This document shows, one piece after another, positions 8,134 through 50,070 of a stretch of 64,000 nucleotides of DNA. The notes below the pieces were generated by a model. It ran no database searches, was not told the DNA's origin, and saw only the letters and a list, made by a program, of their open reading frames with translations. The position numbers were made by a program, and so were the translations under genes. Source of the stretch: Patellaria atrata CBS 101060 (taxonomy: Eukaryota); contig MU006101.1 of the NCBI GenBank assembly GCA_010093705.1, forward strand, positions 409,614 to 473,613, given 5' to 3'. Positions within the stretch are counted from its first letter, which is position 1, and every line of letters begins with the position of its first letter.

Positions 8134-8323
8134 GATGTATAAATTATGATTCTGAAAGTCTTGTGATAGAGTGTCAGGACGAAGGAGGATGTCTATGCAC
8201 ATGATGTCAATTTACGGTTGTCACCATCCTGATGGTCTGAGCTTTTCTCGTCGCGTCTCCCATTGTCCCTCTTCTTGATATATTTGGTAGCCAATATTAA
8301 TATATCTTGCAATTAACTTCAAC

Positions 8324-20424: not shown

Positions 20425-21060
20425 GAGAACATGTTAGCTTAGCTTAAGCCTCCGCCTATGACCGCTGTCCCGCAAGTTCGAATCCCATCATCGAAACGTT
20501 AGTATGTGGTGACTCCTCATAAACTGGCTACCTCCTGCGAGAACTTTCGGCTCCAGCCCAAGGATCCACCTAGGAGGAGATGGGTATACAGCGAGGTTTC
20601 ATTTTTTTTTTTGGGGGGTTTTTTCCTATTTTTACTTACTTGTAAGTTCACGTTAAGGGTGTATGTGTCTCATGAAGGCCAAGTTCTTAATTTATGCCTT
20701 CATCACCCACCCCAATAGTCATAAGCATATTTCTCGATTTACAAGATTGCGATGCGACGTAAAATAAGATTCGTACCTCGCTAGGTTCGAGCACGACGAC
20801 ATAAAACTTCACCACCATGTCAAAATTGGAAAGGATACTGGAGGGAAATGTTTTGGAGACTGCAGGTTTATCCAAACCCCAAGACATCTGATTCTGTCAG
20901 ACGTAAGGGTGCTGAAAATGATCAAGATAATCGCTCGATTGTTTAATGACTGTTCTAAAGAGCGTTTAAATACATTAGAACATGCAGGTTACAGCGTTTA
21001 TACCTACTAGGCAACTGAGAACATGCAGGCAACAGCGTTGATACCTACTAGGCAGCTGTG
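20425..21060 (+). mobile_element. Putative SINE-like composite: tRNA-like Pol III head plus LINE-3'-end-derived tail
   Basis: A-box-like TAGCTTAGCTTA at 20435-20446 and B-box AGTTCGAATCC at 20475-20485. 20825-20896 encodes IGKDTGGKCFGDCRFIQTPRHLIL, matching IGKDEEGKCFGDCQSLQTPTHLIL at 23388-23459 of the adjacent LINE. Confidence 0.5.
20978..21059. repeat. Two-copy ~41-bp tandem repeat
   Basis: gaacatgcaggttacagcgtttatacctactaggcaactga / gaacatgcaggcaacagcgttgatacctactaggcagctgt. Confidence 0.9.
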
Positions 21061-21149
21061 TTAAAGGAATGATGCTAATAACTAGCGTAAGGCAGTAGGA
21101 GATATACTTGATTATCCTTTCCACCAAGATCTTCAGTCTAACAAGGGGA

Positions 21150-23923: not shown

Positions 23924-25289
23924 GTACAAATCGACGGCAGCATACGAAGTGAAAGAGGAGCACCAAGATTCTCATTCGACCCATGCTGTACCAATTGATC
24001 ATCAATCGAGCTATACCTCGCTTGATTCGTCTACTGGCACCGAGAAAATAGATAAGAACCACCCAAACCTCAATTCCTACGAAGACCGTTTTGAAGCCAA
24101 ACCTAAAACTATCATTGCAAACTCATCCCCAGCAGAACCGGTTCCCAACTTAAGTACAACCAAGGTATCATCTGCCAGTGCACTAAATCCAACGGTTCAC
24201 GCACCACCCTCTCCCCGTACAACGCCTGAAGTCGGCTATGGGGAATTTACTCCAGCTAAGATCAACCCAGCGTAAAATCCGTTCATTCTGGAATGAAACG
24301 GAAGGCGGATGCAGATGATAGTCCTACGCAAGATGCATCACCGCAGCCGCAGAAGAGGGGGTGCTCATGAACTTGGCAAGTTCATGGTAGTTATCCGACC
24401 AAACACATTTTTCACACAATTCCTAAACTATCATGCGGAACCATGATCATGATGTGCTTTCGAGAACTCGCCTTTACGTTTAGTATCAGTTTACCTGGAG
24501 GGGAATATGTTTATCTCTCCGTATCGCCGATCCATTCGTAGGTCAAAGCTCGAAGAAACGTTTTCAGGGTTCGTAATCTCATTATCTTTCCCTGGTTTAT
24601 TTTTTTTCTCTCCCATTCAGTATGGTGATATCTAGATTGAACTACTCAGGTGTCGGGAAAGTGGAGTATTCCGTTATTTAAGGTCTTGAAGGTAAAATGG
24701 TGAGGCGTTCAGGACAATTTTTCCTAGAGAGGAGCAAGCTAGGCTTCTATAAGAGATGGCATGGTATCAGAGATGACGCATTTTGCCGCGCTTCATATTC
24801 ACCATGACTTTTCGTTCTCTAGTGGTCAAGCGTTGGCCGTACTTGGTCGTATTCTCGACCTTGACCTAGCTTCGAATATTAATGAATGACCCATATTAAG
24901 ACACCCAATCTCTCAACTGTTCCTGTCGTCCTTCAGATTCTTAAACCATTACCGCTGTCTACATTCTTTCTCGGATTTGTGATTCCAGTACTTGCCCATG
25001 GACGTTCAAGGCTCCGAACTTAAGCACCCGCACCCCATGGCTCACTTGTGCGATAGTCCTTATCAACGTTTTATCGTGGCTCTTTCTCTAGGGAGAAGAT
25101 CATCTTCGATAAGGGCACAGTGGAAGGGGGGAGTTGAGAAACATCAATCAACCGGGTCATGAATCGGTAATTACTTGCTCCTTCAAAACTATATCACTGT
25201 GATTTCAACGATCCAGTTCCAGAGAATATCATACCATGAATAGAACTTCGCAAATCCTCATAATATCATATCATTGCTTTTTGTTGGTA

Positions 25290-27787: not shown

Positions 27788-30750
27788 TCAAATATACGAT
27801 GAGACGATGTCATCGCCATCAAAATACGCCCCCCCTCGACCGCTCTTCTCCATTCTCTTCGGGCTCCTCATTGGCAATGCAGGTTGATGGAACGATTGCA
27901 TGCTTTCATATCTTGGAGGTTGTTGGTATCGCGTATTTTGTGATTGCTGCTGCTGCTGCTGCTGTTGTTGAGCTAGAGCTTGCAAGTACTGATTTCGGAC
28001 ACTCTCCATGCGCATTGTAGGGGACATGGCGCGCTCTCTATGATCCATTGGAATATTAGAATTCATGCTACGCTCGTGCTCGAGTCGAATGGTTTGAGCT
28101 AGACTCATCCCGTTCGCAGGGTAGTCAGGGGGAAGAGGGGGATGGTTACGCATTACTGGCGTGGAACCACGTTCTTGCTCTAATCGAACTGTCGTTCCCA
28201 GGCTGATATCGGTCGGTGCGTACTGGAACGGAGGACTGCCGTCTAGCTCGCTGAGCGCATCTCCGGAATCAACGTTAGAGGAACCCGACGCATCGAGCTC
28301 CTTTGGGCTTTCCGCACTCGCTGCGTGCTTCCACCGATCTTTGGCCTCCCAGCAGTAGCTACGCTTTTGCGGTGCACGGAGAGAGATAGCAGGTGCTCCA
28401 GTCCAAGGTCGGAAGCCATCGGGTATATCTAGACATAGTAAATAATTTACTCGGTCACGGTAGCGTACTCCAATGGTGTCGACGGATAATTTGGAAATGG
28501 TTTGAATGATGCCATATAGCAGGATCCAGCGCCCCATTCGTGCCTCTGCCCAAGACATGTCCGTTGGTAGGTCCACGGTCTTCTCATACCTAATAAATGC
28601 GTCGACGAAGGCATTTGCTACTGTAAGTTAGCATAAGTTTAGAGGTACACATCAGAGAAAAATGCTTACATTCGAAGGTGAGACCGGGTTTATTATTGTT
28701 GGTCGCACCGCTGAAAGCGATAGCAATCTCGAATTGCTCTTTCTGATCACGAACCGCTGCAGACTTTGCCTTGCCTCTTAAACCTCCAAAGAAAGACTTC
28801 TTCTCCTTCTGTTTTGGCGCTGGTATATGCGTCGATCGTGGTAAGAGAGGGTATGGTCCTGGAAGTCGCTCATGCATATTCCGGTTATCAAAACTCCCAA
28901 GCATATCAGTGATTGGTAGTCCTGGCATATCAGCATTGAAAGATTCGCCACTATGATTTTTATATGGCATTATTTCCCATTTTCGCGTGTGACGAGTCTC
29001 GTTAGCCTGCCAGTAGATGTTTCGATCGACCAGATATTCCCACATCGCGCCGAAATCTTCCTGTAAACGGGTAACAACTGATCTGTTCAACCATCTTCCG
29101 CTGTTCGTGCTACGTTCAGGGGGCCAGGCACCACAATCGTTACTATAATAGTCAACCAGAAACTTTCTGAACAGATCATAACTCTTATAGGCTGCATGAG
29201 ATTCGGAAATTCCCATTGTTGTCCATATATCTGAGAAATTCCAATTTTCAAGTAGGCGCTCCGCATCCAAAACTTTGAGTTGCAATTGATTGTATGCGTT
29301 TTCCAGGTTGTGTCGGGTCGTCAATGATAGACGTTTGAATTCCGGATAATCCTGCATGTTGCTGTTCATTATCCCAACGCTGTGGATAAATGCTTCCTTA
29401 TAGCCTTCGAGCCAACGAACATGTGGTAACTCGCACCAAGCCAGCAGACCAAGCGCTGCTCTACTATTTCCCCTGACATCATCAAGTCCTCGCTGTCTGA
29501 TATACTCGATGATTCTCTGAACGTTTCCCCTTCGCCGTGGATCGCCCTCGTTCAATTCATAGAAGGAATCCATCACACCGAGTAGACCAGAAAACATTTC
29601 GAATACGTCTCGTCCAACCACTGGTAAGGTGTAGAGAAGCGCTAAGAAATTACGGACTGCTAAATGATATAGATGCTTTTCAAAACTCGATGTTATATTG
29701 GCCGGCGCGCGAAACCATATCTCATGAGTGATCTCCGCCTCTTGACCGTACATTCCAGCAGAAGAAGCCTTATCACTGGCAGCGGCGCTCATGGGTGGCG
29801 TAGCTTCGTTCATTCCCCTCATCGCTTGGTGGTTGCTGGTCCGGCTTCCAGACGGCCGTAAAGAATTGTTAGCATAATTTCTAGGATATTGGGAAATTGA
29901 GCTCCCATTGTCACTCGAGAAGCTGGCTGGGGTCTCGGTCTCTTCTGCTAGATAGCCCAGATTCGACCTCGTGAGTGGCGCTCCAGGAGTTGGCGGGGGT
30001 GTAAGCTCATCGACCCTGTAAACCTCGCCATATTGCAACAGGTTGTTCAGAAATAGGGAACCAGCTCTCTCAAGTAGCTTTACGTGGACCCGCAAGGCAG
30101 GTTTTGGGTCTTCGTCATCTACCTCTTCACTGAAATAAACATTACAATCACCAGATGACATGCGCATGTCATGATCCTGGAAAATTGTTAACGATCTGTC
30201 ATAAGTATAATAGTTGAAAACTCACGTTGTCAAAGCCACGATAGGGAACAGGGGATTTATCACCCCCATACCAGAACATCATGCCGCTGGTCCTACGTGA
30301 CTGAGATACGTCGGACGTTGATTGAGTAGTCCGATCACTCATTTGTGACGGTTGGCCTACACGATTCGCTGGCGTACTCTTCGAAGGAACGCCACCACCC
30401 CTACCCCTTGGAGCAACAGTCTCCTTACCTGCTCGATTTTGATATCTTTCGTCTGGCTTGATTTTGGCAGCAGCGGTTTTTGGCCGGTGCTGCTCATTTC
30501 TACTTTGAGATGCATTTCGGGAATTGCTAGAAGAACCTTGCGAGCGAATAGTTGTTGAAAATGATGGTGTTCGTGTGAGAGTCTGAGACGACGATGGTCG
30601 TTGTAATGTACTGCTGGACCCCAAACTCCATCCGCTGGACGAAGTTGTGGATCTGATATCGTGAGAGTATTGCTTTGCAGCCTGCTTTTTCTCCGTCTTT
30701 TCAATGTTTTTCACAATAGCCTTGCGGCCTCGGGCTCCTCTTCCCGACAT
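27788..30750 (-). CDS. Large conserved fungal hypothetical protein (~950 aa, 3 exons, poly-Q near the C-terminus)
   Basis: Three ORFs joined by introns at ~30178-30226 and ~28621-28669. Structured core with GDCNVYF, RNFLALLY, WLEGYKEAFIHSVG, GAWPP and GRWILLYGIIQTISKLSVD. No function recognised. Confidence 0.8.
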
Positions 30751-33143
30751 TTCAAATTGCGATTTCCCGTTCTGACTGTTTTACTAGTCGAGCTTTTATT
30801 TCCCAAGGGCACCTTTCAGAAAGGAATGAACTCAGTAGTAGTGGAATATTTTAGGTGATGATTAGTTAATATCTCATGTCCAGCATGGGATATTGACTTC
30901 GGGTCGAATCCGAATAGAAAAGGTTACACTAGGGCTAAATAAATAGAGTACAGTGCGCGATATGCTTTCCGGGATATACTGTAGCAGGAGTACCAGCTGG
31001 GTATGGTTCGCGCGTGTAGCTCTCGGATATAGTAAAAGTTTGATTGATAAAATCTCATACACATGCAAAAAGGAGAGAAGCCAAACGGCGAAGGTTGCGC
31101 ACCGCGTAGGAGGGGAATCAGACGCCTTTAATATCGAGGCAGGTAGACGGTCGAGGCTGAAGCCGGATTAGGCTCTGGCAAGGCTCAGCATAATGATATC
31201 GGTTGCTGTACGCTGTTCCACGAAGCCAAGCCTGCAGACAATCAATAAACGACGGCCTCTAGAAATAATCGGACAGGCTGTAAAGGTCAAGGGTCAAAGT
31301 ATCGTAGGGATCCACCAGGGGGTACCGAGCAAGGCTAAGAGCAATCTTTGGGTAAAAGACAGTGAATTTGCTTCCAGCATATCCTGCAAAGAGGACGACC
31401 GGGAAAGGAGGGTGTTGTCGGGTAGTCCCCTCGCTATAAAGGAAGAATAATTGAAGGCCATGTTTCTGGCGTTTCCCCCTTGCTGTTAGGACTTAAGAGG
31501 ATTGACGGCGCAGTTCCGCACTATCCTCTCCAACGGTTTGGGCTTGGGCCGGGCGAAGATAAGAGAGCAACGGCAGCCATTCCTCATACAGAGCACTTGT
31601 GCAATTTTGTACATCGATAGCCTGTCTCTGGCTTTAATTTTGCACTGATTTGCTCCGACTTATGCCAGTTTTCGTTTTTCCGGTCAGCCCTTGGCCTTAC
31701 AGGCCAATTTCCAAATGCAGAACATCCGAGCGAGATTTACCGCGTACTTGTACAGTAAAAGTTCAAAATAAAAACTTTGAACGACATATTCGGAATCGTG
31801 AATCTTCTAATAAGTGATTTTCAGATAAAGGTAAACAATTTCCGTATGAACGAAGTATTGACTTCAGGTAATAGTACAACTTGTGAGACTCATTCCGAAG
31901 GATTGGTGAATAAGGCGACTTGCCGCACGCCAAAAGCGACTGCATTGCATGCAAGAGTCAAGCGTTTTCTGCATCAAGCGACTCATGTGGATTGTGGAGA
32001 CAGAGTGGAGTCCTTGAAGTTCAACGTCCGGATGAATTTATCAGTAAGCACTTGCTAGCTTTAAAGACAGGCTATGATAACCGCTTCGTCCACGAATTCT
32101 GAAGAAAAGATTAACATCCATGCGGGACCATTATTAGGAATGAATTCGCAGAGTATGAATAATATGTCAACCACCAGAACTTTTGCTGTCTAAGGGGTAC
32201 GCATTGATGGCGCTGTGAAGGCACTCAAAGACAACTCAAATGATTCTTCTGCTAATCAACTTTGTGAAAAGTAGAGGATACTATCAACTTCAACACTTGG
32301 TCGTTTACTGATAGGATTCGTTTCATGATGTCTCAAAGGTCCGTTCATCCTTTTGCAAGGGTTTAAACTGCAAACTGTAGCGTATTGAAACGAAGAGGAA
32401 GCCACCGTCACATCACGTCCACTTTAGGACTGTACTGTAAGAGTAACTGTCAATGGTCAGTCTGTAAGGCGGGTTTGGTTGTCAATACCTGCGAGTCCAC
32501 CATGTCCAACGGACAATAACAAGTCACGTAGTACTCCGTACGCGAAAAAAGACGTAAGGTATCTCTTCGAGCTGAAAAAGGCTCATATCATATCGACTGG
32601 CGTGTGCCTATGGCGGGATTGAAGATGTGCGAGATTCAGCTGTGGATGCTAATCTTTTTGCTTTTTCGACCCATATCGTTGGTTTGATTTGGGTCAGGCC
32701 GAGAAGTTGAGGCCTTTTAGTGCCCTTAGTGGTCTCTACTAAGGCGCAAAGCACGCTATCGTGGCTACCCAGCCACCCGACGTCTCCTTAGTAACCCAAC
32801 CTCTCCCTAGCCACACACTTTACTCATGATATTATACCCATATATTCCGCCAGAGTACGTCATCTCGTTATACAAGAATATTTTACATTTCCCCTTTCTA
32901 TATATCTTTTCCCTTACATCCCTCTGGTGTTCTTGTCTGAAGCGCAAGTCTCATGGAATCGTGGTTGTAGCTTCCCCCGCCATTGCTACCCCACCACGTG
33001 CTGCAGGATCGTCGTCAGTTCAGCTCGATCTGACAGTCAAGTCCAACGTCGGCCAAACCCCGTGCTACAAGTACAAGACACTTTATTCCAACCGGAACCT
33101 CTTTAGGAACACTTGTTACTCGACTATATAATCCACCTGCGAC

Positions 33144-33823
33144 ATGGGAATTTCGGGCTTTCTCTTCATCTCATGGCGTCTCGCCGAGATAGTTACACTC
33201 ATCCCGACCCTCGGGATGATGGCCTACTTCGTCCACGGCTACATCGAGGCTAATCAACTACAACCAACCTCGATTCTTTTACTGTTCATAGCGTCTGTTC
33301 TCGCGGCAGCATGGGCTATCGCGACATTATTTGCATACGCAAAAGCACGGCATTCGGCCATGTTCGTTGCGACGGTTGATCTCTGCTTCGTCGGTCTCTT
33401 CATTGCTGCCGTCTACTACCTTCGGGGAATTGCACGCGCGGATTGCTCCAACTTTCGCAATGATCGGTTCTTTGCTTCCCTGGGTATCTTAGGATACTCG
33501 GGTACCATTTCCGGCTACAAACCATCATTCCATATCAACAAGCATTGCGCCATGTTGAAAGCCTGCTTTGCATTTGGAATCATGAATTGCATTTTCTTCT
33601 TCATCACATTCGCGAGTCACCCCTTTTCCTTCCATTTATATTCCATTAACTGACTTTTCAATAGCTGCTGGCTCTTCTGGTTCATCGTAACCACAGGAAG
33701 GACGATGTCGTCGTCAAGCGAGAGCGCCACGTAACCCGACATGGCCATCGCGGCAGCCGTGAATACCATTCTAGCAGTCCACGGCGCTCGCACCACAGCA
33801 GCCGCCGTCAATACTATGTTTGA
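33144..33823 (+). CDS. MARVEL-like 4-TM membrane protein with a basic His/Arg-rich tail; one GC-AG intron
   Basis: Four hydrophobic segments and KHCAMLKACFAFGIMN. Intron 33612-33664 (gcgagt...ctgac...atag) gives in-frame LLALLVHRNHRK...SRRQYYV*. Confidence 0.85.
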
Positions 33824-36800
33824 ACTAGTAATTCCGACAAGCGACGTTGCTATATAGGCGAGAAGACAAGATCGGGAAAGGTGTTCTGGTTTGTTATATG
33901 GATCAATCCTGTTGGACTATGGTTGATAAAGAACGGGCGTGTGTAAATGAACTTCTCCGTCGAGGGTTGATATATGCTTATCTCGAGATATCACTTTGAC
34001 CTTTTAAACCATATTGGAAGTCTCATCTATTTCTCATTATATGATATGATATGACGGAACGAATCTCACCTAGAATGGTTAGGACTGTACGAGCACAGTC
34101 TGATTTATTAGGAATGTATGTTATCTAACTTTTTCTTCTTTGATACCTAATTCAATTATCTCCTTGTTTAACTCGAAATGTACGGAGAATCATAGTTAAA
34201 CTTTTCGTATCTAATACTATCGTGGTATTCCTCGCATACTTACGTTCCCTCTTCAAAGTATCTTTGGCCCTACTGTACGGGAATAGTCACACGTGTTAGG
34301 TAGTCGAGCCGTACAACGAACTCCACCATTACAGTACAGGCTGCCGAGATGTCGTGGTTCTTCAGATTTACTAACCATTCGGTGCAGTAAATGTTAACCT
34401 AAGCAAGCATGGAAAGGCGGAGCATGCCAAATCTTGACAACGAGGAGATATGAGAAAGAAACTATTCTCCCGTACCAACAGCATCCCCTCAATACTTCCA
34501 GTAATTGGTGGTAAGGCAGCTGTCAAGGTACTTTGTAGATTTGAGGGGAAATATCGGCTATAAAAGTGGATCGTCATTAGCTCATCTGGTAAAGGATAGT
34601 CTGAACACCTTTGCACGACCTGACTCAGGTTAGCCCGCGGAAACTAGGATCATCGTGGTTCTAATATCTTAAGTACCACCTTAGTGTATAACGACCGCAC
34701 CTCTCAGTCCCCTAACAATTCTTACTTTCATCACTATTCATCTTAAGGTTGCCGACTCGATAAACTCATTGAGCGTAGGCGAGGAGCTCCTTCAATCAGT
34801 TCACCAACACTCAAGTGAATGAGCGATCCTGGAGGTTATACATGGAATGAGATGGCTAAGACCAGATGAATCTTCCAATAGAGCAATAGCTCCGGTTGCC
34901 ACAGTTCCCATCAGGGATTCCGTGGTTCTTATTCCAGTGGTTCGGTATCATTGAAGTGGATCGATCAATTGATATTGATATCCCTTACAACGGCCCTCTT
35001 TCTAGACGAACATCTTTCCTTTCCCCAAGCTCGAGAGAGCCGGAAGTCGCACTGTATGATTCGGTTTCGGAAAGCTGCCGTCGTACGGGAGTACATGTAC
35101 GAGGATTGGTCGACTGTTTGACCTTCACCGGAATGTCCAAACTCTGAAGGGAGTCCAATCGAGTTAGGGGGCTTGTTGATCCCTCACAACATATACCGTA
35201 AAATCTCATGCATTGTCTTCTGGAGTGTTCTGGTGAGCTTGTCCTCAGTTGGCTATTAGGCTACTCGTAGCTTAAATTTGAAAGAACAGCAGAGCGTTAG
35301 GACAACTACGAACAGACCAGGACCAGCTCAGGGCTAGGCCGTGACACTCTCGAGAGACGGTACATTAGATTTTACAGTATTGATCTGCAACATGCACCTC
35401 ATCCCCTATATCCGCCAAAGAAAAACATTCTGGCTGCTCCTTGCTCTTGCATGTAGTTGATTGGCTATGTGGTACAGCTCTTCGGAAGCCATCTTCGTTA
35501 CCTGATAGGTTGGTTAGCAGTCAGGTTACGAGACTTGAAGCCCAAGGTCCCGAAATGCGTTATAGCCCGAGGAACATAAGCATAGCAACCCGAAAAAAGC
35601 TAAGTCTACCGTCTACGCTCTATCAGTGGAATCCTACTCGAATTCTTTTTGTAGTAACCTTTAACGAATTGCATGACAACACATCAACCACATTATTCGG
35701 TTGGTTTGGAATCAACTGAAAATGTATTTAAAGCTTCAGATATATCACATTTGGTCCAAACTCTTTATGCTTGAAAAGATATCTCAGTTTATCCTGATAC
35801 AGATCCTTAGCGTATACCGTAAGCATCTAGGGGGATTCTTACATTGGAGATGACAGTTATCAAACAAGATTACTATTCTTAATATTGTCTTCCTCAATGT
35901 TCATTTCATAACATATAGGTACGTGAGGTTGACCTAACTCTTCCAAGGATTGTTTCTTCTGTTCCCCTTAATAACTGACAATTTCCTGAAAAGTGAACAC
36001 CGATGCCGTCTTGAACCTGTTCCAGAGCGACGTTTTATAGCTCAATGGATTTTACCTTGCGCCTAGAGATCTAAGAAGTGTAGAGACCGATCACTCTCAA
36101 TCCGTTATGCAATTCGAGAGCTTGTAAGAGTCATTTTACATCTCCGCATTTCGGGAGAGTAGCCATGATGAAACCACCAATTCCCCCAGCGGCCCATCGG
36201 ATAATAAATCAATATCTCTACTGTCTATTACCCGTACTAACAAATTGCTCCTTTTCTTCCATTACGGTGGCTGGCTCATCAAGAGTGTGGATACCTTGAA
36301 TCTCGGTTTTCTTCTTGTGGATACTGATATTCTGCCCGAGATATCTTGTTCCAGTCAAATGATACGGTAGAAGTAGACCTAATACGATTTTAAATAGGCT
36401 GACTAGGCAAAAACAACAACAACAACAACGAGCATTTCGGCATAAGTGCGAGGGATCACCACTGTAATGGATAAGGATATCCACATCTCGGATCAAGAAC
36501 GGAGGTAATCATCCATAAACATGATTCCATAATATAGACTAACTACATCGACAGATTCCTCGTTTGAAACTTGGGAGCGTATAGAGATATCGATCTACGT
36601 AGTTAACATCAGAATCTGGTTAACCAGAATCCACAATGGTTATGGTAGTAAACTCACCTTGTCTTATCAAAAGTCGAACGCAGACTAATATAAGATAGTA
36701 CTGGTTGCAGTATCATAACTGGGATTCTAAACGAGGTGCTGCACCTTCTTGGGGAGGCGGCATGTTTCCTTTTGGCATACGCGAGCTTGAGCCACCCCAA

Positions 36801-37499
36801 TACCAACCACCTGCCCACAGGGAGATCAGTCCAGCATTTTCCCCATACAAGCTCTCCACTATCCGACAGGAGACAAGTACGGTATTCAAATCTATGCAAA
36901 GGGGTACGGCATGTATACCATTCTTCCTATAACCTAGCTTTCTGCAACTGACGATTCCTTTTCAAGAAGTGCTATGATAATTTGTCATCAAAGCTTTACC
37001 CTACATCTCTAATCTGGGAATCTAATTTTATACAGGGTGTTAAGCATACGGTTATTTGTCCAAGTCTGAAAATATATGCGGAGATCCCGGCAACCACAGA
37101 TGTTTCCTTTCCGGTTCACTCCTGCACTAACTCCGGTCTACGGATCGACTTTCTCGCCACGTATTTCCTTCCAATTCTCGCTTCACATTGTCTCTACCAA
37201 CAACAATTTTCAATATTATCTAAAGTTTCGTCAAATCTGGTTGAAAGCGACCTCACCCGTTTTCACCCGTCTTCGCTGGCAAAAGATGATTCGCCGCTTT
37301 CTGAACCCTAAATATCGCAAAAGAGGGTTGACCGGGCCGTTACCTACTGGAGTGAGCTAAGATTCCGCCCTACAGCCGCGTCTCCGGACATTGAATCCAC
37401 TCGGACCTTATTTAAGCGGCGCAAACCTGCTTCTGCAGTTCCCATCTCATGGAAGTGAAGACGTGGTCAGTTATAAGGGGTGAATATCTAGTCCTTGAT

Positions 37500-38376
37500 C
37501 ATAGTACGTCCTCGTGCTAGACCAATTTTATTTTCCCTCACTTCAGCATTCAAGGCTTCGCCTCATCCGGCTGACTTGTTGGACAGCTTTCACTCCGCCG
37601 ACAAAGGTGCACTAGAAGCCGAGAGCAACTTTTCCGAACATATATTGTATTGATTAGCCAGTAGATAGGTCGTCATTCGTACACGTCAGAGTGGATTCTG
37701 CCGTGAAAACACTGGCAACTCGGTTGCCTACAATACAACCCGTTGGGACGAGACAGCTCGGACTGAAATTCTCCTCTTTCCACCCTTTTGTCCAACCGTC
37801 CAAGACATTACACGGGACTACTGAGGCAGTACATGTTACTTCAAGTACCAAACAAGGTGCTCAATTTCCCGCCTCGCAAAATTTCGCTAACCGGCAGTCA
37901 AAAAGTACACTACATCTACAGATATCTCCCGTTGTTCGCCTCACTTCGGTTTATCCGCCTCAGCACCACCCGATCTAGAAGGGGAGAATGGCGTCCATGG
38001 CCCTTCGTCTTCTTGGAAAACGGCTAATTGGGAATGACGTGGCTGGTGGCCTAAAATCCCCCTGAGCTGCTGGAGAGACGTTGTGCGTTGTTCAAAAGGT
38101 GTTTCTGGCTCTGCTGAGCCCGTAGAGCCAGAGTCAGGGCCTTCTTCTTGGGCTACCCCTGAACGATCTTTATACTGGACAGTCTGCCCTGATCTCTGCT
38201 CGGTCTACGTTAGTAACTCTGAAGGAACACGAAGATCGATGCCCTACAGTGGCAGTGCTCACCTTGCCCTCCTTGCTGTTTGTTCCGCCATTCACTTCGG
38301 CTCCTACGCTACGATTACCGCCATCCACACAATTTTGTCTTCGGTTGTTACACTCTCGGTTCCTCTGCTCAGCCAT
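37500..38376 (-). pseudogene. Cassette gene 3, copy A (intron-containing orphan with in-frame stops)
   Basis: ATG 38376, 38-codon exon, intron 38196-38262 (gtgagc...ctaac...cag), then RSGQ...QLAVFQEDEGPWTPFSPSR...DKPK*GEQ.... The 3' limit is approximate. Confidence 0.6.
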
Positions 38377-39449
38377 AGTTCTGAGTGGTAATGGTATACA
38401 ATAGAAGACCGTGTAGGGAGATGTGCAGCAGGGTGTGCTCTTAGGGTCAACTCAAGATGAGAATTGTAAAGGGTCGGGAAGATGTCGTGAACTAAGATCG
38501 TTTGACAATAGTAAGGGTACGGCGCACACGGAAAATTGTTCCAAAGAAAGTGTACGAAAGCTGCTGAGTTTCCCCATCACAAAGAACCTGGGTACTAGGG
38601 AGATTTTATAATCACTTTCGGATAATCTCGCGTAACGGAGAAGCCGACTAGCTGGGCTCTCAACCCTTTGCCCTGACACGTATGGACTGTATCACTACGA
38701 CGAACAAAACGCCCCACAAAGCTTACTCCTAATGCCGTTTCTTTACCAATCGGCCAGGCCTTATTGTACGCTACCTCCAGTACTCCGCAATTGGCTTTGG
38801 CTTTTTGGTATAAGTGACTGTGTGATGAAGAGACGCTTGGTTCTATGAAACAAGTTGAACACACAACGACGGATAACGTACGCAGGGTATCCTTGCTCTG
38901 AGTATCTCCGAGTGTACTCTAGGGCTAATCAAAAGCGCCGATATCTATTCTATTGTGAACAACTAACGGTTGCATGAGCTAACTCAAAACGTTCTTCTAC
39001 GAGTATAACCAAATCATCGAAGAGGGGCTATTGCATTCCATTTTCAGTACCCGTGAGTAATGTATGTTCTTAGATTTTATTGGGTGTGTGTCTGCAATTC
39101 CTCATAACACTCTACTTTACTGTCAATCACTGCCGAAGCCGGGATGATGAAACACATCCGGTGTATCATAGTATCAAACGAGTATTCAACAACATAGACG
39201 TATTCTGGTCCGGTGAGTTTCCAACATCTATTACCATCGCTCGAACATAATTCGTTGAAAGCATCGTGATCAACTCGAACTCGGTGTATTTGGAATTTGG
39301 AGAATTGGTCAAATAGCTATAGATAGAATAAACGTCCATACCACCGGGTTGTCACACATCACCTCACGATAAAAGCTATCGATTTACGGGCCTTATCTAA
39401 CACCCCTAGAACTTCAGAATACTGTACGCTTGGTGAACTTTCTTCAGCT

Positions 39450-40285
39450 TCAGTTAACCAACATGTGCTTTTCGAGAGCTTGGATTACCAACGGTGATGT
39501 TGGTCTCCGGTTGTCTCCGGTTACACAAGAACTCGTTTGGCTATATACCACTGGCGTATTAGCTTTTCCGCGACCACGTTGAGCCCTTAAGCAAAGGTGG
39601 AAGCCCCCCGATGTCGATCGCTGCGTTTATTCCAGCATTTGATTCGAGGGAATCGATGCAGCGCTTCTTCCATCACCGCTAGTCGGCAGCATATTGATAG
39701 CTTACGTATACGACTTATCAGCTTTGATAATTACCACCATCTATAGCTTGTAACTGATGTTCTATCCACTTTGCCTAGCATATGCGAGGGTGTAGATTTC
39801 CTTCTGATCCACGGTACTTTTTGAGTTCTGTGCGCTACTCTTCTTGATTTCTCACTTGAATTGAAAAGTTTTTGAAGGATGTTGCTTTTCTTTTGGCTTT
39901 TGCTCTTTTAGGAGATTATGAAAATCCCGTTAAGGGGTACATATAGGACAGTTCTGATGTAAAGAACGATCTGAAGCGTCGAATATCGTTAAAACTCTAC
40001 CTCTTCGACGTCAGCTAAAGCCGCCAAGCTCGGGGAAACGCGGTTACTGATCCGCACCTGGAGAAGTTCCTCATTAAGAGGAAGATCGGGCGGGACCAGT
40101 TCGCTCGTATATTCAAAGATCTACTTGAGGGGATAGACGATCAGCGGCGCCCCTTTGATACCGATGGGGTGATACTGCGGTACGAAGCACACTGGGATAG
40201 GGGCATTCGCGTGCTCGGTGTCGCACAAGTACGGAACCCTGACATTCTGGAACTGTTGCGTGGGTTTGAATTGTCGTGTGTGTGA
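39450..40285 (+). pseudogene. Cassette gene 4, copy A (orphan, nearly continuous 3' frame)
   Basis: About 140 codons in one frame with only two stops (39944, 40016): EKFLKDVAFLLAFALLGDYENP...KIGRDQFARIFKDLLEG...RVLGVAQVRNPDILELLRGFELSCV*. Upstream fragments read DSRESMQRFF and SRQHIDSLRIRL. Confidence 0.55.
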
Positions 40286-43200
40286 CAGAGCACGAAGTGA
40301 TTGTTTAGTAGCGACATTGATATATGTAGTTATATATCGGTCTGTGCACTGGATCTTCCGCCTAGCGAGGATAGAGACCGGACTAGTAGAACAATCAATC
40401 CATAATCTACGGTCTTTAGCGTACTAGTTTTGATCACGTCTTCGTTTCAAAATTCAGCCAATCCAATATCGAGAAAGAGAACGTTCTGAATGAATAATTG
40501 GTTGTATCTTTGAGTTGAACCGTGCCTGTACTTTAGGATGCGCTAACCACCGTAAATTATTGCATGGTAGTGGAGGTATAATTAAAAGACGAGCTTAGAA
40601 CTAGAGAAGATAGGGAAACGTTTGACGGCAAGGCGTGAGTAAGATTTCTATATGTAGATGCGGTCTATTGGAAACGATAACATTGATAACCCGAGGCCCT
40701 CCTGAAATCCTCTGATAATCTTTAAATGATGGAGCAAGCTAAAACATAAAAGGTGGATCGTGGCGAGCCCTATTTGGTAAGAAATGGTCTTGTATGACTC
40801 GGTGGAGGTTAGCCTGCGGGAACTAGGATCATCGTGGTCGACCGATATTTTCACTCGAGTTTATAACAACCACAACTCTTCTACCTCCTCCCGTCCTTTG
40901 CAACCTTCTTCCAGTGCAGGAAACTCCTCGAGCACGGTGATGATCCCCCATCAAAGACCACGACACCAGCGATTCCGCTGTAGCCCTTACCTTTCGACAA
41001 GACTTCTGGAACGAGTTCACCCTTTGGATAGGACAATAGCTTCAGCTGTAGAGTTCCTATCAAGACATCATGGTTCCTACTCCTGGTCTTAAAAGAACGG
41101 AACGACGTCGGCCAGCTTCACAACCTCTCCAAAGGATTCTTCTTACTCGGCATCCTCTTCCGATCCTGCATATTATGGAACCAGAAAGTTGTACGGCATG
41201 ATGCAGCTCAAGGAAACCCTGGTCGTACAGACGTGGATGTACTTATTCCAGTACGGAAATAAGGTTGAGGAGCGTTTCACCCGACGAAGCCTGATAAATG
41301 TTAATAGTTTGGACCAGTGACTGGAGGCGGATTATTACTTTCAATAACGTTGCTTCCTGCAACATTCAAACCATTAATTATATCCGTCAAGGAGATCTCT
41401 TTACACCCTCAAGACCTTGTATGCATATGATTGGATATCTACCTATTCGTTAATATTTCCCCTACCTGATAGGTTTGTCTGCAACCTGGTTCGATGACAG
41501 GACGTACGCGAACGTCTTGAGGGCTACGGTTGTAGATAATTTTGGTAAGTACTCAGGTCGCTATACTTGATTGGTATCTCAACTGAACCTCTTATTGGCT
41601 ATTAAACTTCTGATGGCGCATGACAACGCATTAGGTGCATACTCAGCATGAGTGCAGACGATATTTAAGTTCCCTCCGTACGTATGGGAATATAGACATG
41701 TTTTATATCATGTTCCTCCCGTACACATTTCAGCTTTAAGTCTTACCCTCGATCCTTGAATCATCTGGCCAGTATCTCAACGATCTGTTCCTCGGTAACT
41801 CAGGCCCTGATATCTTCTTTAGTACTATGCTCGAGTAAGGAGCTTTCTTTGGAGAGTCTCCATCCCAGTGTAGGCAAATGGAACCATCTTAGCTCTTGCA
41901 GTGGGAACTGTTTTCTTTACAGCTTGGGAACGGACCGAGCTTCTTATTACAATTCCTATTGGGCTTACGACATGGTCCAAGAATGGGGTGTCCGTAATCC
42001 CGCGAGATGTATATGATGTGCCAGTATTTCCATATTGCGATAACTCGGGACTTTGGAGCTATTATTTTGGCAGCGGAACTTGTAACGTTCGTTATAACTT
42101 CGCATTGATGAAGTACCTCCTTTAAGGGACTGTTGAATAGGTCGGTACTGGCACCGGAAAACAGATTGAGATCTCAGACCGAGTTTTCAATTGTCCCCAT
42201 ATACAGTTCGAGGTTCTAGTTCGTTGGGCGTTCGAGGTACGCTATGTGCGAAGCTTAGGAGTCTCTGTACTGACTTGCACTTGAGTCCCGTCATCGTACT
42301 TCCAATCTCCGGTGGTTATCTCAATTATGCCTATGGACTCGTCCTTTAAGTTAGTTCGGCTGCTTTCAACAGATATAAACGTATCTATAAGACTCTAGAA
42401 ATATTTACCGGTTAAGCTAACTTAAACTTAAAACTTGATATTAAGGTCTATGGTCCTTAATATACTTCCATGGCCTGGAATAAACCCTTTCGTTTGATGC
42501 ACCGAAGACGTCACCCATTTGAGCTTCGTGGAAATGTGAGAAACCTCTGATCAAGTCCGTGTGGGAACCTGTTTACCGAACTATATCTGAGAGTCTCACA
42601 AACTTGAGTCTTCTGCTCGATCTCAAGAAACTGATGAAAAGAGAGTCACTGCGATGTGTTAGTGCGGAGTTCCGAAAGATGCGTTGAATCCTTAGTGAGG
42701 CTCCCTTTTCTTTTGGGGTTATGCGAGCTTGAGTAGCACAAGCTTTAAGAACATCACTTTCCTACCCATGCAATGATTGATCAACAAGTTCACCTTACAA
42801 ATTTCGGCACAGTTGCATAAATTTTACTTCAGATTACTATCAAACTCTGATGCGTTTCTACCGACAAGTAGGAACATGTCTGTCTCTGCACAGTCTCGTT
42901 TCTCTGCTTGTTGTATCCTCCGGATATAGGAAATGCGTACAATTTGGCTATAGAACCCTATACAGTTTTTCGGTCCAGGAACCGGGCCAGATCGAACCTA
43001 TTTTCTTGCCCTCCTTAGCCCTTCAAAAAGTTCCACAGCCATCGTCGAGTCTGTAGCCATTGTATGACTACATCCCTGCTGCTCCCTACGCGACTTCAAG
43101 CAAGACTGCGTCGCAATAAGGATTTTTCAGTTTTGACAATACTAAATATCTCGCAACAAAAGTCAGGCAATTGGGTACGAAGACTCGCAACTTTGATAGA

Positions 43201-43399
43201 GTCATAATGCATCCTTGCTGGCGCCATAGGATTTATGGCCTTCATACGGCCACGCCCAATATCCAGTTAGCTGGGGTTGTCCTTGGGGTTCTTCATCTCT
43301 CACCGACATTCCATTCAGTGTCTGAATGTGCGCAGGCGTATCAAAAGCAGGGAAAGTTTAGCTTGCAGTTCTCTATTGCGACGATGGAAAACGTGGTCC

Positions 43400-44337
43400 A
43401 ATATATGGGAAGATAGTTCCGCGCTTTAAGGTATGATTGTTCCCTTACCATATAATCTATTGCTCTGGAGTGAAGAATACATGGCGTCGTAAGGCTAACT
43501 GTCAAGGCTTGGTCTCACTTTCGCAAGAGGTCTTATGATCTAATACCAGCCTTGAGATTAAAGAATTGTACGGTATCCTAGCCAACGAGATCCTATTCGC
43601 ACACGTTTCTATGCATGTGCTGCGGACCAAACTACAGTGGTTGCCTACAAGATAAAGAGTATTTGGTGCAAGAACTCACGAACCGTCGGATATCAACGCG
43701 GTCTCTATCCACTAATGCCAAAAGGTTACGCACCGCGACGGTTTTCAAGCACATGCAACGTAGATTCTTGTGTCCCCACTCCTCACGGGTCTCAAAAGGT
43801 TCAGCTGGAGCATGCAATATACGCAATGCATCTGCAGGCGCCGCTTATTGTTCGCGTTACTCTTTCTTATCCACCACAGCTCTAGACTGGGAGTATACCG
43901 ACCAAGGCCCATTTTCCTCCTTCATGAATTGATCCAGTTGGAAAGACGTTGTATGAGTTTTTGAAGGTATGATCCTCTTCTGGACACCTGTTGTTGGTTG
44001 CGTGGATGACGTGGAAATTTTCTGGGAAAATGTTGCGTGTTGCTGGGAAATCATCGTGGGTTGCCCTGATTCCGCATGAGCGGCATCAGAGGTTTCTCCA
44101 TCTTCCTCCTGCGAATCAATCTCAACAACAAGACTTTGTTCAGATCTCTATAGATCTATATGAGCAGACATCCTAAAAAAGTAGAAGAAAACACTTTTCC
44201 CCTGAATTACGCAGTCGGCTTACCTCGTTCCATTGTTCTCTCGTATCCTCTGTCCGTTCCACTCCTGGACTATCTCTGCCGTCATGTGAAGTAACCGGAT
44301 TCTGACTTGTACTATTTGGAAGTTCGCGCTCGCTCAT
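43400..44337 (-). pseudogene. Cassette gene 3, copy B
   Basis: ATG 44337, 38-codon exon, intron 44148-44223 (gtaagc...tag), then RSEQ...QLDQFMKEENGPWSVYSQSR...DKKE*REQ*.... The 3' limit is approximate. Confidence 0.6.
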
Positions 44338-47300
44338 TGTGTATGACACCTAGAATAGTGGAATGTTACTGGAGCAAAGAAGAAACGGTGTCCCATTAGT
44401 TTAGGAGAAGTTCCGCTGAATGGTTCAGGAAGATGCCGATACGAGTTACTGCTCCAGTGGACAATCACCCCAACTCAATTTATGATGGGAATAGAAACGA
44501 AGAAGATGTATGAAGTTGAATATTTCCTCTACCATCCTGAGGAGTTGGAGGATTATATACAATTCTGGCTCCATTCTAGACCCGATTGAGCCTTAGGAAC
44601 TGGGAACGATTCAGCACTCTTCGGGCGCCTCTGCATTATATCAACTGTTACCATTGGCAACCTTGATATCTCCCTCGAAGCATACTATTTTCGTCTAGTG
44701 GATTCTATTTCCTAAACATGGTATTCCTTCTGGCTGTTTTCGACGATACGACAATTTTAGTACAGATCACAATGTGCCCTTGAGACATGTTACTTGTTAA
44801 AACATCATTACCTATTATACCACATCTATAGCAAGGGCAATTGAAATCCATCATTAGGTTGCGCTACTCCTGTTAGACGTGCATATAACTCAAAATAGGG
44901 CTCTCTGGTGTATCAAACGGTAATGGTTAATCCCTAACCATATGTCGCCCAAAGCTAACTGTACAAATTTTCCACAGCTATGTCTAATTTCCGCAAAAAG
45001 TTACTGCATTATTTTACTGGTACCCAGTCAAAAGCGTACCACGTGCATGGCTTTAGTAAAGACAGATTCAGTTAGGTTCCGCTCCTCAGATACAGTGCTT
45101 TACTTGAAAAGCTGAAGGTGTGATGTCTCGGTCGCGGTTGGTTCGAATCATCGTTCAACGAAGGAGATAGTTTAAGGTAGTGTAACTCCTATATGACCCC
45201 AGTCTGTTTAACTTTGTCAGAGGCTCCGGGTGGTCGATCTCTGTAACCTCTAGGTCTCGGCCCGAAGCTCGGAGAGCTGATTCGTCGGATGGATGAAATA
45301 TTCTTGATATCCGTGCCTTTTTAAACTCGGCAGAATATTTTAAAAATCTGACATGCGTACCTTGACTGTTTTCGACTGTTTGATAGAAATCATTGGCTCA
45401 CTCACAACAACACTCTTCCATGTCAATTGGTAAGTGTCTAAATCTAGGACACGTCGTAGTTCCCTGGTCAGCGAGCTTCTCTTTTTTACCTGCTTGATCA
45501 TTTGTGGTCGTGTCAATGTTCACCGGTCGAATGACACTGCACCTTTCGACCTCTTTACCGTAGCTGATCTGCGCAGTTCTAGTTGGAGTAGTCTCTAATA
45601 AATTGTAATAGACTAGAAAGCGGTTCGGCACGAACCACCTGGGGTCGATCAATGATCGCTGTAAATGTCCCGCCTCAATTCAGGCGTAGCAGACCGTACA
45701 TATTATTTCAGGAGTAAAAACAAGCGGCGCTTAATATCTCGTATTCATGATGAATCCGAAGATAGCCGTGCTTTGCCTCAGTCGACAGTGATGCACTCGA
45801 AGCTCAAGTAGCTCTCTTTTCGCTTTATTTTATTCCGGGGGTATGGAACTTGAGAGATACTATCATCTGCTGTTAGTGGCTAGAACTTTACAACGTTTGA
45901 CCTATTACACTTTAGAAGCACTGTCATCTGTTCTGAGTGGCTGACGCTCTTCCTCACCGCTCCACTCAGTAGGGATCAGATCAATCCTCTGCTCCATCTC
46001 TCAGTTTCCTTAGACCCATTGCCCCTTTCTTAAGAAAACTGAGAGAAGCCAACTGCACGCGGGGACCAGTTCAGACAAACCAACGGAAGTTCTTAACAAG
46101 ATACCGGTGTAGTTATACACAAACGTCGATAGAACTACTCACAAAGCGATATGATTAAGCTGGAGCGCCTTTCGTGGTGGCTTCGCTTACACAGTACGGA
46201 TATGGTGACGAAAAACGGTCCGCGTGCAGTCAGTGACGTGCAGCAATTGCGGTTCGCGATGGTGCTTGGTTGCTTGATGGATTATTCGCGCCCTCCCGCA
46301 AGGTAGGTTTAAACGTATTCTTCACGATGTTATCTTAAAGTCAGCCTGATGTTGATACAGGACCAGAGCTCGTGCAAAGTAGCTTGTTAGATGTTGAATG
46401 AGCGCGGATAAGGTTTGATTGACTGTCTGATACATACTTGCGGAGTAACACTACCTTAAGCTATGGAAATAGAGAATTATTTAGGCGAGCTTTGCCCGTC
46501 TAGAACTGAATTAGGTAGTTCTAGGACTATCTGATGGAGTACTGTTTGGTTCCACCCGACATTGCCAGCGACGAGATGTCGTTGAAAATTTTGATGAGGC
46601 TATACACGTACATGGCCTCCCCTTGATTCTCAAAGGGCAAAGCGTAAACCTAACGATCATTGACGAGGCTTTGATAAGTTTACATACTGCGAAGTCGGAC
46701 ATGTTGTCCCAGCCGGGCGCGCTTACCAACTGTACCACCTTCCATTCCAATTCTGGGTGGGGGGACGAGGGGACGTCCAGTGACGGCACCGCCGAGACTA
46801 AGCTAAAACCCCCTTAGTTCTATCGAGTCAGGTGCAGGGAACTTCAAGCTCTTTTTTCTTCATGACCTATTGCTCCCATTTTCTGCTTCGTGCTATTATT
46901 CATATCTGGATATAGTTAGCTAACAATAACAGAGAAATTACATATCTGATGACCATTAGCGCTTTCGAAATTTCCTTCTTTTAGGGGCGCTATATCGCGG
47001 CTGACAAGTTCGATGAGTATCCTTCCACCTTTATTTGTATCTGCATGCCATGGAAGGGGCCTGTGGTAACCCGGAGGTATAGCTGTACCTAGAGCTCTGG
47101 ATACAGCTCGAGCGCACACACATGGCAAAAGAAGCAAGCAACCAACCTCCCGGCATTGACGACATGCACAACACGAGTCGTCCCGCTCGTTCCCTGCCCC
47201 GGACGGCAATATCGACGGACTCCCAGTCCTGCATCATATACATCTTCATCGTCGTCGCAGCTGTGCAAAAATTTCCCGCGCCAAAGCTATCCAAACTCTC

Positions 47301-47393
47301 TAGCAAGTGTCCAGCCTAAGCTCATCGGTCATTTTTCGTCTGCTGTGTCGTCAGAGGCGGATAGCTCCCTAGAGCTGGTGATGGTATCTTCGG

Positions 47394-47421
47394 ATCAGAT
47401 AAAATAAGATCGATCAGATTA
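47394..47421. promoter_or_regulatory. SreA-type iron-repression GATA sites
   Basis: ATCAGATAA at 47394-47402 is an exact ATCWGATAA match; ATCAGATTA lies at 47413-47421. Both are ~350 bp upstream of the siderophore transporter ATG. Confidence 0.7.
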
Positions 47422-47765
47422 CGAATTTTAATCGTCGCATCCCACTCACTTCATCATCGTCCTCGACTCAGAGCTGTTTTTGGGACTGCTAATTCCGCAT
47501 CCTTGTCCTGGTCCAGTTTATTAGTGCTCTCCGTTTATCGCTTCACCCTTAGCTGCTGGGGATGAAGGGCAAATTTGCAACCCAAATTCGAATTTTTTTC
47601 GCGCTGGCGTCACTTGGCGTGACGGTCGTCCCCAGCACGTCCGCTGATCGTGTAATCTAATCAATCTCATAAAGCTACCCTTTCCCCTTCCCCCTGCTAC
47701 AGTACAATCCTCCTCCCAGATCTTTGATTGTGAGCTTGCAGCATTTCCCTTACGAGTAGGGAACC

Positions 47766-50070
47766 ATGTCTACTCTCGTTGACGAAAAGCCTCGAGAAGT
47801 TCCTGAGGAATCGGTGAACCATGTTGACGACGACGGCAAGCCTTTGCTCGGAACAAAATCGCCCGGTGTTCTACGCATTGAAGCACTTAATGCTCACACA
47901 ACCTTTGCCAATCGAATCTTCATATTTGTTGGCGTCTTTCTTATTGCTTACGCTTACAGCTTAGATGGTACTCTTCGGTATACATACCAGGTAAACCTAG
48001 TGATGACTTATTAATATCATTCTTACTGACCCACTTTAGCCTTATGCAACAGCTAGCTACGCACTTCATTCGCTTCTTGCTACCATTGGTGTGCTTCGTA
48101 GTGTTATAGCTGCTGCAGCTCAGGTACACTTCCGCTTGTTTTCATCTTTATCCCTAGGTACTAACGAGCTATCAGCCTACAGCTGCAAAGATAGCCGATG
48201 TATTTGGTAGAGTCGAGCTTGTCCTCGTTTCAATCTTCTTCTATGTCTTAGGTAGGACCTTTCTTAAGGATATATTTAGGCCAGTTACTAACCTAGCAAG
48301 GGACTATTATCGAAGCTTCGTCTCACGATGTCAAGTCGTTCTGTGCAGGAGCTGTGATATACCAGGTAGGTAGTAATCTTCCAACGTCAGAGACAATTCA
48401 GCTAACAAGTCCAGATTGGTTACACAAGTATTATTTTGTTGGTGGAGGTCATTATCGCTGATACGACTTCTCTTCGTTCTCGTCTACTCTTCTCCTATAT
48501 TCCCGCCTTACCCTTTATCGTACGTCTTCCTCATTATTGTCATAGTTTGAAACTAATAAGTCTCAGATCAACACATGGGTCAGCGGTGATGTCGGTTCAG
48601 CTGTCCTCGGTTCAACAAGCTGGCAATGGGGTATGTTCATAGCTATCTCAAGTCGTCACAAAAGAGATCACTAATTTTCATGTAGGCGTCGGGATGTGGT
48701 GTATCATCTATCCTGTTTGCGCTCTTCCTCTTATCGGTGGGCTCATGTGGGCCTCTCGTAGAGCGACGAAAGCTGGTGCTTTAGCGAACTACAAGACACC
48801 ATATCAGATATACGGTGGAAAGCGACTTCTCGTAGCTCTTTTCTGGCAACTTGACGTTATCGGTATCATTCTACTCATTGCTGTTTTTGCAATGATTCTG
48901 GTTCCATTCACCCTTGCAGGTGAGAATGGTCAGGATTGGAATCAAGCACATATCATCGCTCCTTTGGTCGTCGGGTTTCTATGTATTCCTGCATTCATAA
49001 TTTGGGAGACGAAAGCTGTGCATCCAATGGTTCCATTCCATGTAAGGATGCGCCCTTCGTGTGTAATTGATTTCAGCTAACCTTTCACAGCTACTTAAAG
49101 ATCGTGCAGTGTGGGGTGCTCTAGGTATCGCCGTAACGCTGAACTTTGGTATGTGACTATGAAATGTTAGAATTATATTTTCATTCTAACTTCTACAGCC
49201 TGGACTTGCCAAGCAGATTACCTCTTCACTGTTTTGATTGTTGCATTCGATGAGACAATCAAGTCTGCTACGCGAATTACCTCCCTATACAGGTATGTAG
49301 TTGTTGACCAGGAATATGAATCTGGATACTGACCAAGGGATAGCTTTGCTTCCGTCCTCACTGGTACTGCATTGGGCTTTATCGTGTTCAAGGTTCGTCG
49401 ACTAAAACCATTCATCATCTTTGGAACCTGTCTCTTCATGGTCGCATTTGGACTCCTTATTCACTACCGTGGTGGTACGGGTGGAAGTTCGCACTCCGGT
49501 ATTGTTGGTGCTCAGATCTTACTCGGTATCGCTGGTGGTATGTTCCCATATCCAGCACAGGCCAGCATTCAAGCTGCTACTAGGCATGAACGTAAGTAAA
49601 CAACATCCATCTGCTTTCGTTAAGAATCAGTATACTCATTATGACGTATTTTAGATGTTGCCGTTATTACTGGTCTCTACCTTGCTTCGTACAACATCGG
49701 TTCAGCGCTCGGAAACGCAGTCTCTGGTGCCATCTGGAGAGGTGTAGTGCCAGGGGAGTTGACACAAACCCTCGGAAACGCTACGTTTGCTGCAACCGTC
49801 TTCGGTGACCCTCTCACATTTGCCGCAACATATCCGGTTGGTACTCCAGAACGTACCGCGGTGATCGACTCGTTCAGACACGTCCAGAGATTACTAACCA
49901 TCACTGGTATCTGTCTCTGCACTCTTCTCATCAGCTTTGCATTTTGCCTCCGCAATCCTAAGTTGGGCAAGGAACAGAGTTTGCCGGATGCTGAGCTTCC
50001 AGGTGGTCCTGGTGGTCCGCCAGCTGATAAACGCACCTTCGCAGAGATGATTCGGTTCTGGAAGAAATAG
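47766..50070 (+). CDS. Siderophore-iron MFS transporter (SIT/ARN family, Sit1-like), 11 exons
   Basis: [72 protein letters not shown] and [12 protein letters not shown]. Ten GT-AG introns lie between 47991 and 49654. Confidence 0.95.

Follow-up and report, generated by a model that had tools for sequence, protein, structure and literature searches.

What lies in the roughly 12 kb without long open reading frames in a 64,000-nucleotide stretch of the Patellaria atrata CBS 101060 genome (contig MU006101.1, positions 409,614–473,613; hereafter the window)? The region is bounded by a small membrane-protein gene (33.1–33.8 kb of the window) and an intron-rich major facilitator superfamily (MFS) transporter gene (from 47.8 kb), and a first-pass annotation had proposed that it hides two head-to-tail copies of a ~6-kb cassette of at least four genes. 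We found that the region contains two collinear units, here called A and B, and that one small minus-strand gene is intact in both. Taken together, the sequence evidence makes it likely that the locus arose long ago by tandem segmental duplication and has since undergone birth-and-death decay, with one orphan gene retained in both copies.

Two diverged head-to-tail units

The duplication was delimited by DNA alignment as follows.

34,560–39,300, plus strand: unit A, demonstrable homology; may extend weakly to ~40,400.
40,745–45,300, plus strand: unit B, demonstrable homology; may extend weakly to ~46,400.

Units A and B are a real collinear, same-strand, head-to-tail duplication that includes non-coding DNA. 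They are about 50% identical, and the offset between them falls from 6.19 to ~5.95 kb. Local alignment of 34.3–40.4 kb with 40.6–46.7 kb, using transition-tolerant scoring, gave a score of 7631, as compared with 1684 ± 121 (maximum 1999) for 20 shuffles and 1486–2171 in 14 control alignments that used other sections of the window. This score bears out both the same-strand collinearity at a ~6-kb offset and the strongly diverged, lineage-specific block duplication that the first-pass annotation had put forward. On-diagonal matches in 47 sliding windows scored 2376–5469, against a reversed-control peak of 1939. Anchored global alignment, with anchors picked by the analyst, yielded segments ~18, 9, 15, 5, and 1 standard deviations above 10 shuffles each from left to right, the last of these lying beyond 40.1 kb. 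Exact 11-mers common to both units number 27, and 15 of them fall in the offset bands 5880–6020 and 6120–6200 (background, 0.31 per other 140-bp bin). Standard blastn detected a single 33-bp match only, and softer scoring added four more blocks (E ≤ 0.007) at offsets of 5,970, 5,916, 6,150, and 5,945. The self-comparison suggested in the annotation therefore yields a significant diagonal beyond the 33-bp match, well above shuffles, but one that fades after ~39,300.

The position of the right end is uncertain. Homology is firm over ~4.5 kb, to about 38.8–39.3 kb, and doubtful further right. Eight of fifteen 300-bp windows across 34,601–39,100 have z ≥ 3.8, while the five windows across 39,101–40,600 (z of 1.3, −1.0, 3.3, −0.1, and 2.5) are inside the off-diagonal control range, whose maximum is 3.7 when the values 13.5 and 8.0, which are the true diagonal viewed from B, are left out. 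Identity per 250 bp ranges from 0.45 to 0.64, with peaks at 34.5–34.75 kb (the head of the unit), 35.4 kb, and 37.75–38.0 kb; the lowest values are probably close to the chance level of a forced alignment. Three of the seven sequence anchors on which the duplication had first been proposed lie on the alignment (the 33-bp match, gcgagcttgag, and the paired ATG at 38,376/44,337). The rest are off its path: ttggctatta falls within an insertion present in A alone, tggtccaa and tcggcag.atatt are ~275 and ~390 bp away, these three matching by chance, and gggaccagttc, ~44 bp away in a region of weak homology, is ambiguous. The duplication is not a mis-assembly, since one contig of a public DNA run covers both copies (30,962–50,000) with 0 differences and the copies are only ~50% alike; both public DNA runs come from one sample, possibly the source of the assembly.

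Outside the gene described below, the divergence between A and B is near-saturated and non-periodic, with transitions about equal to transversions. Gap lengths show no bias toward multiples of three (36 of 134), and codon periodicity is almost absent from the ungapped blocks. In simulations, 49–55% identity corresponds to 0.35–0.45 substitutions per site per branch, and overall divergence is roughly 0.7–0.9 substitutions per site, with dS reaching about 1.4 in the minus-strand gene.

The minus-strand gene pair

A search for gene models with up to two introns and at least 45 amino acids, and with start, splice sites, and stop aligned in both copies, returned one convincing pair, on the minus strand.

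37,941–38,376, minus strand: orphan gene copy A (exon 1, 38,376–38,263; intron, 38,262–38,196; exon 2, 38,195–37,941; 122 amino acids).
43,857–44,337, minus strand: orphan gene copy B (exon 1, 44,337–44,224; intron, 44,223–44,148; exon 2, 44,147–43,857; 134 amino acids).

The two copies have aligned ATG and stop codons, first exons of 114 nt, and phase-0 GT-AG introns with GTRAGC donors (GTGAGC...CTAAC...CAG in A and GTAAGC...TAG in B). Exon 2 starts with RS(G/E)Q in both, and the net length difference is a multiple of three. TATA-like boxes are located 234 nt upstream in A (~38,610) and 222 nt upstream in B (~44,559). The pair score of 67 was reached by none of 1,719 locally permuted alignments (maximum 53; 1,218 yielded some pair), and none of these contained a pair of at least 100 amino acids scoring at least 40. 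Simulated neutral survival of the ATG, splice sites, frame, and open frame in both copies was ≤ 2e-4 under all five parameter sets. Over 116 aligned codons, pN was 0.42 against a pS of 0.64, and dN was 0.61 against a dS of 1.44. By these signatures the gene is shown to be intact and under purifying selection in both copies. The copy B model is identical, letter for letter, to the public hypothetical protein KAF2837044.1, which forms a singleton cluster. The ATG–exon–intron structure that had been matched between 38,376 and 44,337 is thus correct, but its description as decayed is not: the frame is open in both copies.

We considered whether both units might be wholly dead DNA, the minus-strand frame included, with the matching gene structure a chance survival. 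The longest ungapped block of exon 2 lacks codon periodicity (22, 21, and 22 mismatches), coding-model scores are low, and homologs are absent, all as this explanation would have it. Set against it are the permutation and neutral-survival results above, the excess of dS over dN, and the TATA-like boxes at matching distances, and we hold it to be the least probable of the explanations weighed here.

The gene is classed as a lineage-specific orphan, with no homolog detectable outside the lineage. A word-based search of 5.8 billion clusters found only protein B itself (1 match among 11 candidates), and a two-sequence A/B profile run against 1.84 billion representatives again found only protein B. 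Neither the word-based cluster search nor the 1.84 billion representatives contained a public protein for the 122-amino acid copy A. An Atlas search with the orphan protein gave no usable match, and its one Pfam match (E 0.018) fell under that family's cut-off and was taken as chance.

Proteins A and B are 32% identical, hydrophilic from the first residue, and nearly cysteine-free. Polar, charged, glycine, or proline residues make up 75–77% of each, and the grand average of hydropathy (GRAVY) is about −1.2 to −1.3. The Atlas model has a predicted template modeling (pTM) score of 0.10, and both proteins are predicted to be intrinsically disordered. Their best conserved stretch is C-terminal and reads E-[DN]-G-P-W-x-x-[FY]-S-x-S-R. 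Tentatively, the proteins might work as small regulators that are not secreted and use this short linear motif to bind a folded partner, probably only at certain stages or under certain conditions.

The plus strand and the heads of the units

The best conserved non-coding DNA is at the head of each unit.

34,558–34,704, plus strand: head of A, with a TATA-like box, the 33-bp element (34,627–34,659), and the start of a pyrimidine-rich tract; non-coding and putatively promoter-like.
40,744–40,879, plus strand: head of B, with a TATA-like box, the 33-bp element (40,806–40,838), and a pyrimidine tract.

The 33-bp element is identical between A and B at 31 of 33 positions. Such identity arose in none of 150 neutral simulations run at 53% identity and in 3 of 150 run at 61%, and the element is therefore conserved beyond drift. 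It keeps no common reading frame, has no match in Rfam (one chance match, E 2.5, lies elsewhere in the region), and folds no better than shuffles (z of −0.5 to 0 in six of six folds). Only two genomic occurrences exist at up to 3 mismatches; its 18-nt core has two extra 2-mismatch genomic matches, neither with flanking homology, compared with one match for a control. Neither the motif nor its core was found in metagenome and viral contigs. Read-through of an in-frame TAG in the 33-mer was considered and rejected, as there is no coding context. Most likely, the element controls a plus-strand transcript, active now or recently, from its promoter or 5' leader; late short gene conversion is an alternative source of the identity.

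Three features on the plus strand could mark further genes.

37,504–37,586, plus strand: canonical-looking intron in A, with a counterpart at the aligned place in B (43,431–43,506).
41,198–42,500, plus strand: relic or short multi-exon gene candidate in B, behind the conserved head, with several good canonical splice sites.
40,019–40,285, plus strand: 88-codon open stretch at the end of A, without an ATG of its own, protein-like by eye, and not open in B.

No common open frame surrounds the aligned intron, which possibly belongs to a relic gene or a non-coding transcript. The candidate in B begins near an ATG aligned between the units (~35,057/41,198); its scores are within the null range, and its counterpart in A is interrupted by an insertion and out of frame with B. 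Homolog searches with the 267-amino acid plus-strand frame of B (0 of 370 candidates, among proteins of 146–468 amino acids) and with the 110-amino acid tail of A (0 of 186 candidates, longer proteins only) constitute weak evidence. The open stretch at the end of A had no usable Atlas match, and two A frames searched as proteins against the genome found only themselves.

More generally, paired introns numbered 2 on the plus strand and 1 on the minus strand, as compared with 3 and 2 in reversed and complemented controls, and frameshift-tolerant codon similarity was 514 and 413, as compared with 570 and 487. No plus-strand gene pair with aligned structure scored above zero. Ab initio and stop-tolerant gene finders, written for this analysis with splice weights from a fungal consensus, scored the flanking genes at 47–132, A and B at 19 or less, and reversed controls at up to 23; scores in A and B showed no excess over shuffles. 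Pfam matched no family in six stop-read-through frames of 33.9–47.7 kb, or in 57 plus-strand pieces of 200 amino acids (from 72 plus and 72 minus; the minus strand was scanned as whole frames only). A tRNA scan found none. Two resemblances were dismissed: a reverse transcriptase-like 'VDD' at ~43,990 (plus strand) is antisense to the intact minus-strand gene, and an F-box-like 'LPDR' at 35,500/41,465 falls on a predicted 3' splice site and finds no support in Pfam. The plus-strand pieces are suggestive singly and as a whole no better than controls. Old genes may once have been present on this strand. Of the four or more genes per unit, in the order +,+,−,+, that the first-pass annotation had envisaged, one is thus demonstrated, on the minus strand, and the three on the plus strand show no excess over controls.

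These results bear on the idea that each unit is a co-adapted module of several genes or transcripts, for example an allorecognition or poison-antidote pair, whose plus strand carries live, fast-evolving short or non-coding spliced transcripts. The TATA-like box and 33-bp element conserved at both heads, the strong intron at an aligned place in both units, the near-constant unit length, and the several canonical splice sites of B at 41.2–42.5 kb would all suit such a module, and in Neurospora, lineage-specific genes are reported to cluster with HET-domain genes (PMC10684091). Paired introns and codon similarity are nonetheless below controls, no plus-strand gene pair exceeds zero, no HET, NLR, or other Pfam domain is found in the six whole frames and 57 plus-strand pieces, and A carries an insertion within its first plus-strand region. 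We consider the module unlikely. Still less probable, in our estimate, is its fullest form, in which the 6-kb unit would be an active lineage-private module. Here the disordered minus-strand protein would work with plus-strand transcripts that are spliced, start from the TATA box and 33-bp head, and yield tiny peptides or act as non-coding RNA, and the two highly diverged versions would represent different specificities within a recognition or poison-antidote system not yet described. Pfam likewise matched no HET, NACHT/NB-ARC, NLR, or known killer domain in the units, leaving the self/non-self or drive-like role suggested earlier unsupported.

Origin of the block and comparison with known systems

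Two short elements are inserted in the block.

35,193–35,380, strand not assigned: hairpin resembling a miniature inverted-repeat transposable element (MITE), in A only; 188 bp, with 26-nt terminal inverted repeats (81% complementary) and TA at both ends.
40,406–40,554, strand not assigned: MITE at the A/B junction, from a dispersed family with at least 10 matches (11 candidates), 71–83% identical.

The first of these accounts for the drop in offset from ~6.15 to ~5.97 kb, because it is present in A only; an own-genome DNA search with it found only itself. The family of the junction MITE is ~190 bp long, its full forms being TA-flanked with terminal inverted repeats, and the copy in the window has worn outer ends. 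By its similarity to its relatives, the junction MITE is far younger than the duplication, and it was rejected as the cause of the duplication for that reason. Near the end of unit B is a 23-nt inverted repeat pair (91%; 45,167–45,189 and 46,442–46,464, 1.25 kb apart), and a 28-nt imperfect palindrome (47,081–47,108) lies upstream of the transporter gene.

Could A and B themselves be two old adjacent insertions of a mobile element family (a retroelement, a DNA transposon, or a cargo-carrying element), with the small gene as cargo or accessory? A unit of ~6 kb resembles long interspersed nuclear element (LINE) or long terminal repeat (LTR) elements in size, a LINE-like relic occurs in the window at ~19.5–24 kb, and 50%-identical copies would escape genome-wide searches. 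On the other side, Pfam matched no reverse transcriptase, integrase, transposase, or recombinase in the units, and the units were not found to be bounded by long terminal repeats, direct or inverted, or by a target-site duplication, a test that is weak at the ill-defined right ends. The 33-mer occurs in the genome only at its two known sites, and the observed/expected (o/e) CpG ratio is 0.92 in A and 0.90 in B as against 0.52 in the LINE-like region. With A and B as queries, searches of the genome at the DNA and protein level, insensitive at this divergence, returned the locus itself only. When the remainder of the window, 200 kb of contig on its flanks, and 13 further loci (~0.3 Mb of 28.7 Mb) were searched with a sensitive profile, no third copy appeared (best E 0.14); control queries built from A alone recovered B in three of six segments. 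A mobile origin is very unlikely. With no termini or mobility-enzyme match found, and no other copy seen in these searches of limited sensitivity or extent, the non-canonical mobile unit of the first-pass annotation is unsupported.

The LINE-like relic spans ~19,500–24,300 (plus strand), with matches to reverse transcriptase and RNase H at 21.7–23.6 kb that are broken up by stops, and a 68-bp direct repeat at 20,825/23,388 (74%). Its o/e CpG of 0.52 comes without CpA depletion, which suggests that CpG was lost through methylation and not through repeat-induced point mutation (RIP). In A and B, CA o/e is 0.99 and 1.02, TA o/e is 0.89 and 0.86, and CpA is the least changed C context; no RIP signature (CpA depletion, TpA excess, strong transition bias) was found in the units, where a very old signal could be erased. 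With CpG near-intact, the units lack the mutation mark that this genome puts on transposons. Three DNA-methylase loci were found, two of them open and the third with three stops in the match, one of these in frame within the domain.

G000:C6:1004984-1005580, minus strand: DNA-methylase-family gene with three stops, from a genome search.

This stop-bearing locus is presumably the RID-like gene, a label given from sequence motifs.

The rest of the window is fungal DNA with ordinary genes in the flanks (MutS, GNAT, monooxygenase, MFS, amidase, carboxypeptidase, and others), and a public source attaches the label Patellaria atrata to a protein from the duplicated region. The block lies at about 444–456 kb of a 735-kb contig. 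The membrane-protein gene at 33.1–33.8 kb matched no Pfam family at E 0.001, MARVEL being the label of the first-pass annotation. To its left is a further ~2 kb without long open reading frames (~30,800–33,000), where the loose end of a run contig at 30,991 hints at a small repeat, and beyond this a predicted three-exon gene (27,788–30,750, minus strand; ~955 amino acids) whose three long open reading frames have no Pfam family at E 0.001. At ~5,700–8,200 (minus strand), used as an intergenic control, the gene finder gave a two-exon model of 177 codons with a score of 41. None of the Patellaria atrata papers among the matches listed concerns this locus, as judged by title and start of abstract, and a literature search for a comparable block found nothing.

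The explanation we favor is that an ordinary 5–6-kb chromosomal segment between the membrane-protein and MFS genes was duplicated once in tandem long ago, probably by unequal crossing-over. Birth-and-death evolution would have followed, in which the small minus-strand gene, as the sequence signatures show, stayed functional in both copies, while the remaining content either decayed beyond recognition, as former genes may have done, or was never coding. The MITE and the MITE-like element inserted later. The small proteins might be disordered regulators whose GPW motif binds a partner, and the 33-bp element may have a regulatory role.

Several points weigh against this explanation. The public model of copy B is a prediction, perhaps from the same sequence signals as ours; no public protein was found for copy A, and the working status of both copies is judged from sequence. 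The dN/dS of ~0.4 was estimated from a single saturated pair, whose alignment score favors amino-acid matches, and the function of the putative binding motif is a guess. The genome-wide search with protein B did not return the known copy A, and dispersed old copies could be missed. Lastly, the offset stays at ~5.91–5.98 kb over 4 kb despite many small indels; this is more length than long-dead DNA should keep, and more of the unit may be constrained than was demonstrated.

The significance of the locus is modest. By itself it defines no new class of element and answers no standing question. It illustrates how an internal paralog, at ~50% DNA identity, can serve to validate an orphan gene that lacks homologs elsewhere, and it adds a gene copy (A, 122 amino acids) for which no public protein was found, along with a candidate binding motif. 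It is also a natural example of an old duplication with alignable intergenic DNA, in a fungus with an apparently broken RID-like methyltransferase gene. Residual interest attaches to copy A, the motif, the unexplained 33-bp element, and the constant unit length.

The two insertions resemble the TA-targeting MITEs classed as Tc1/mariner-type in being short and non-coding, with terminal inverted repeats and TA flanks, and at least 10 dispersed elements are related to the one at the junction. They are passengers only, and identity between the junction copy and its family reaches 83%. In fungi, species-specific genes are familiarly gained and lost through tandem segmental duplication followed by birth-and-death decay. 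Units A and B share with this process a single head-to-tail duplication, partial gene retention, and later transposon insertions, and differ in that, for all their great age (~50% DNA identity), length is nearly unchanged and the retained gene belongs to no family.

A close parallel comes from Neurospora, for which one account describes adjoining duplicated clusters of lineage-specific genes with long non-coding stretches between, RIP being thought to limit such duplicates (PMC11628664). The Neurospora clusters are reported to lie close to telomeres, alongside HET-domain genes, in a genome where RIP is active, whereas the block described here is mid-contig, with no HET match, no RIP mark, and intergenic DNA that is still alignable. 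Both systems have domain-less orphan genes, adjoining duplicated blocks, long apparently non-coding stretches, and paralogs of little similarity (PMC11628664, PMC10684091).

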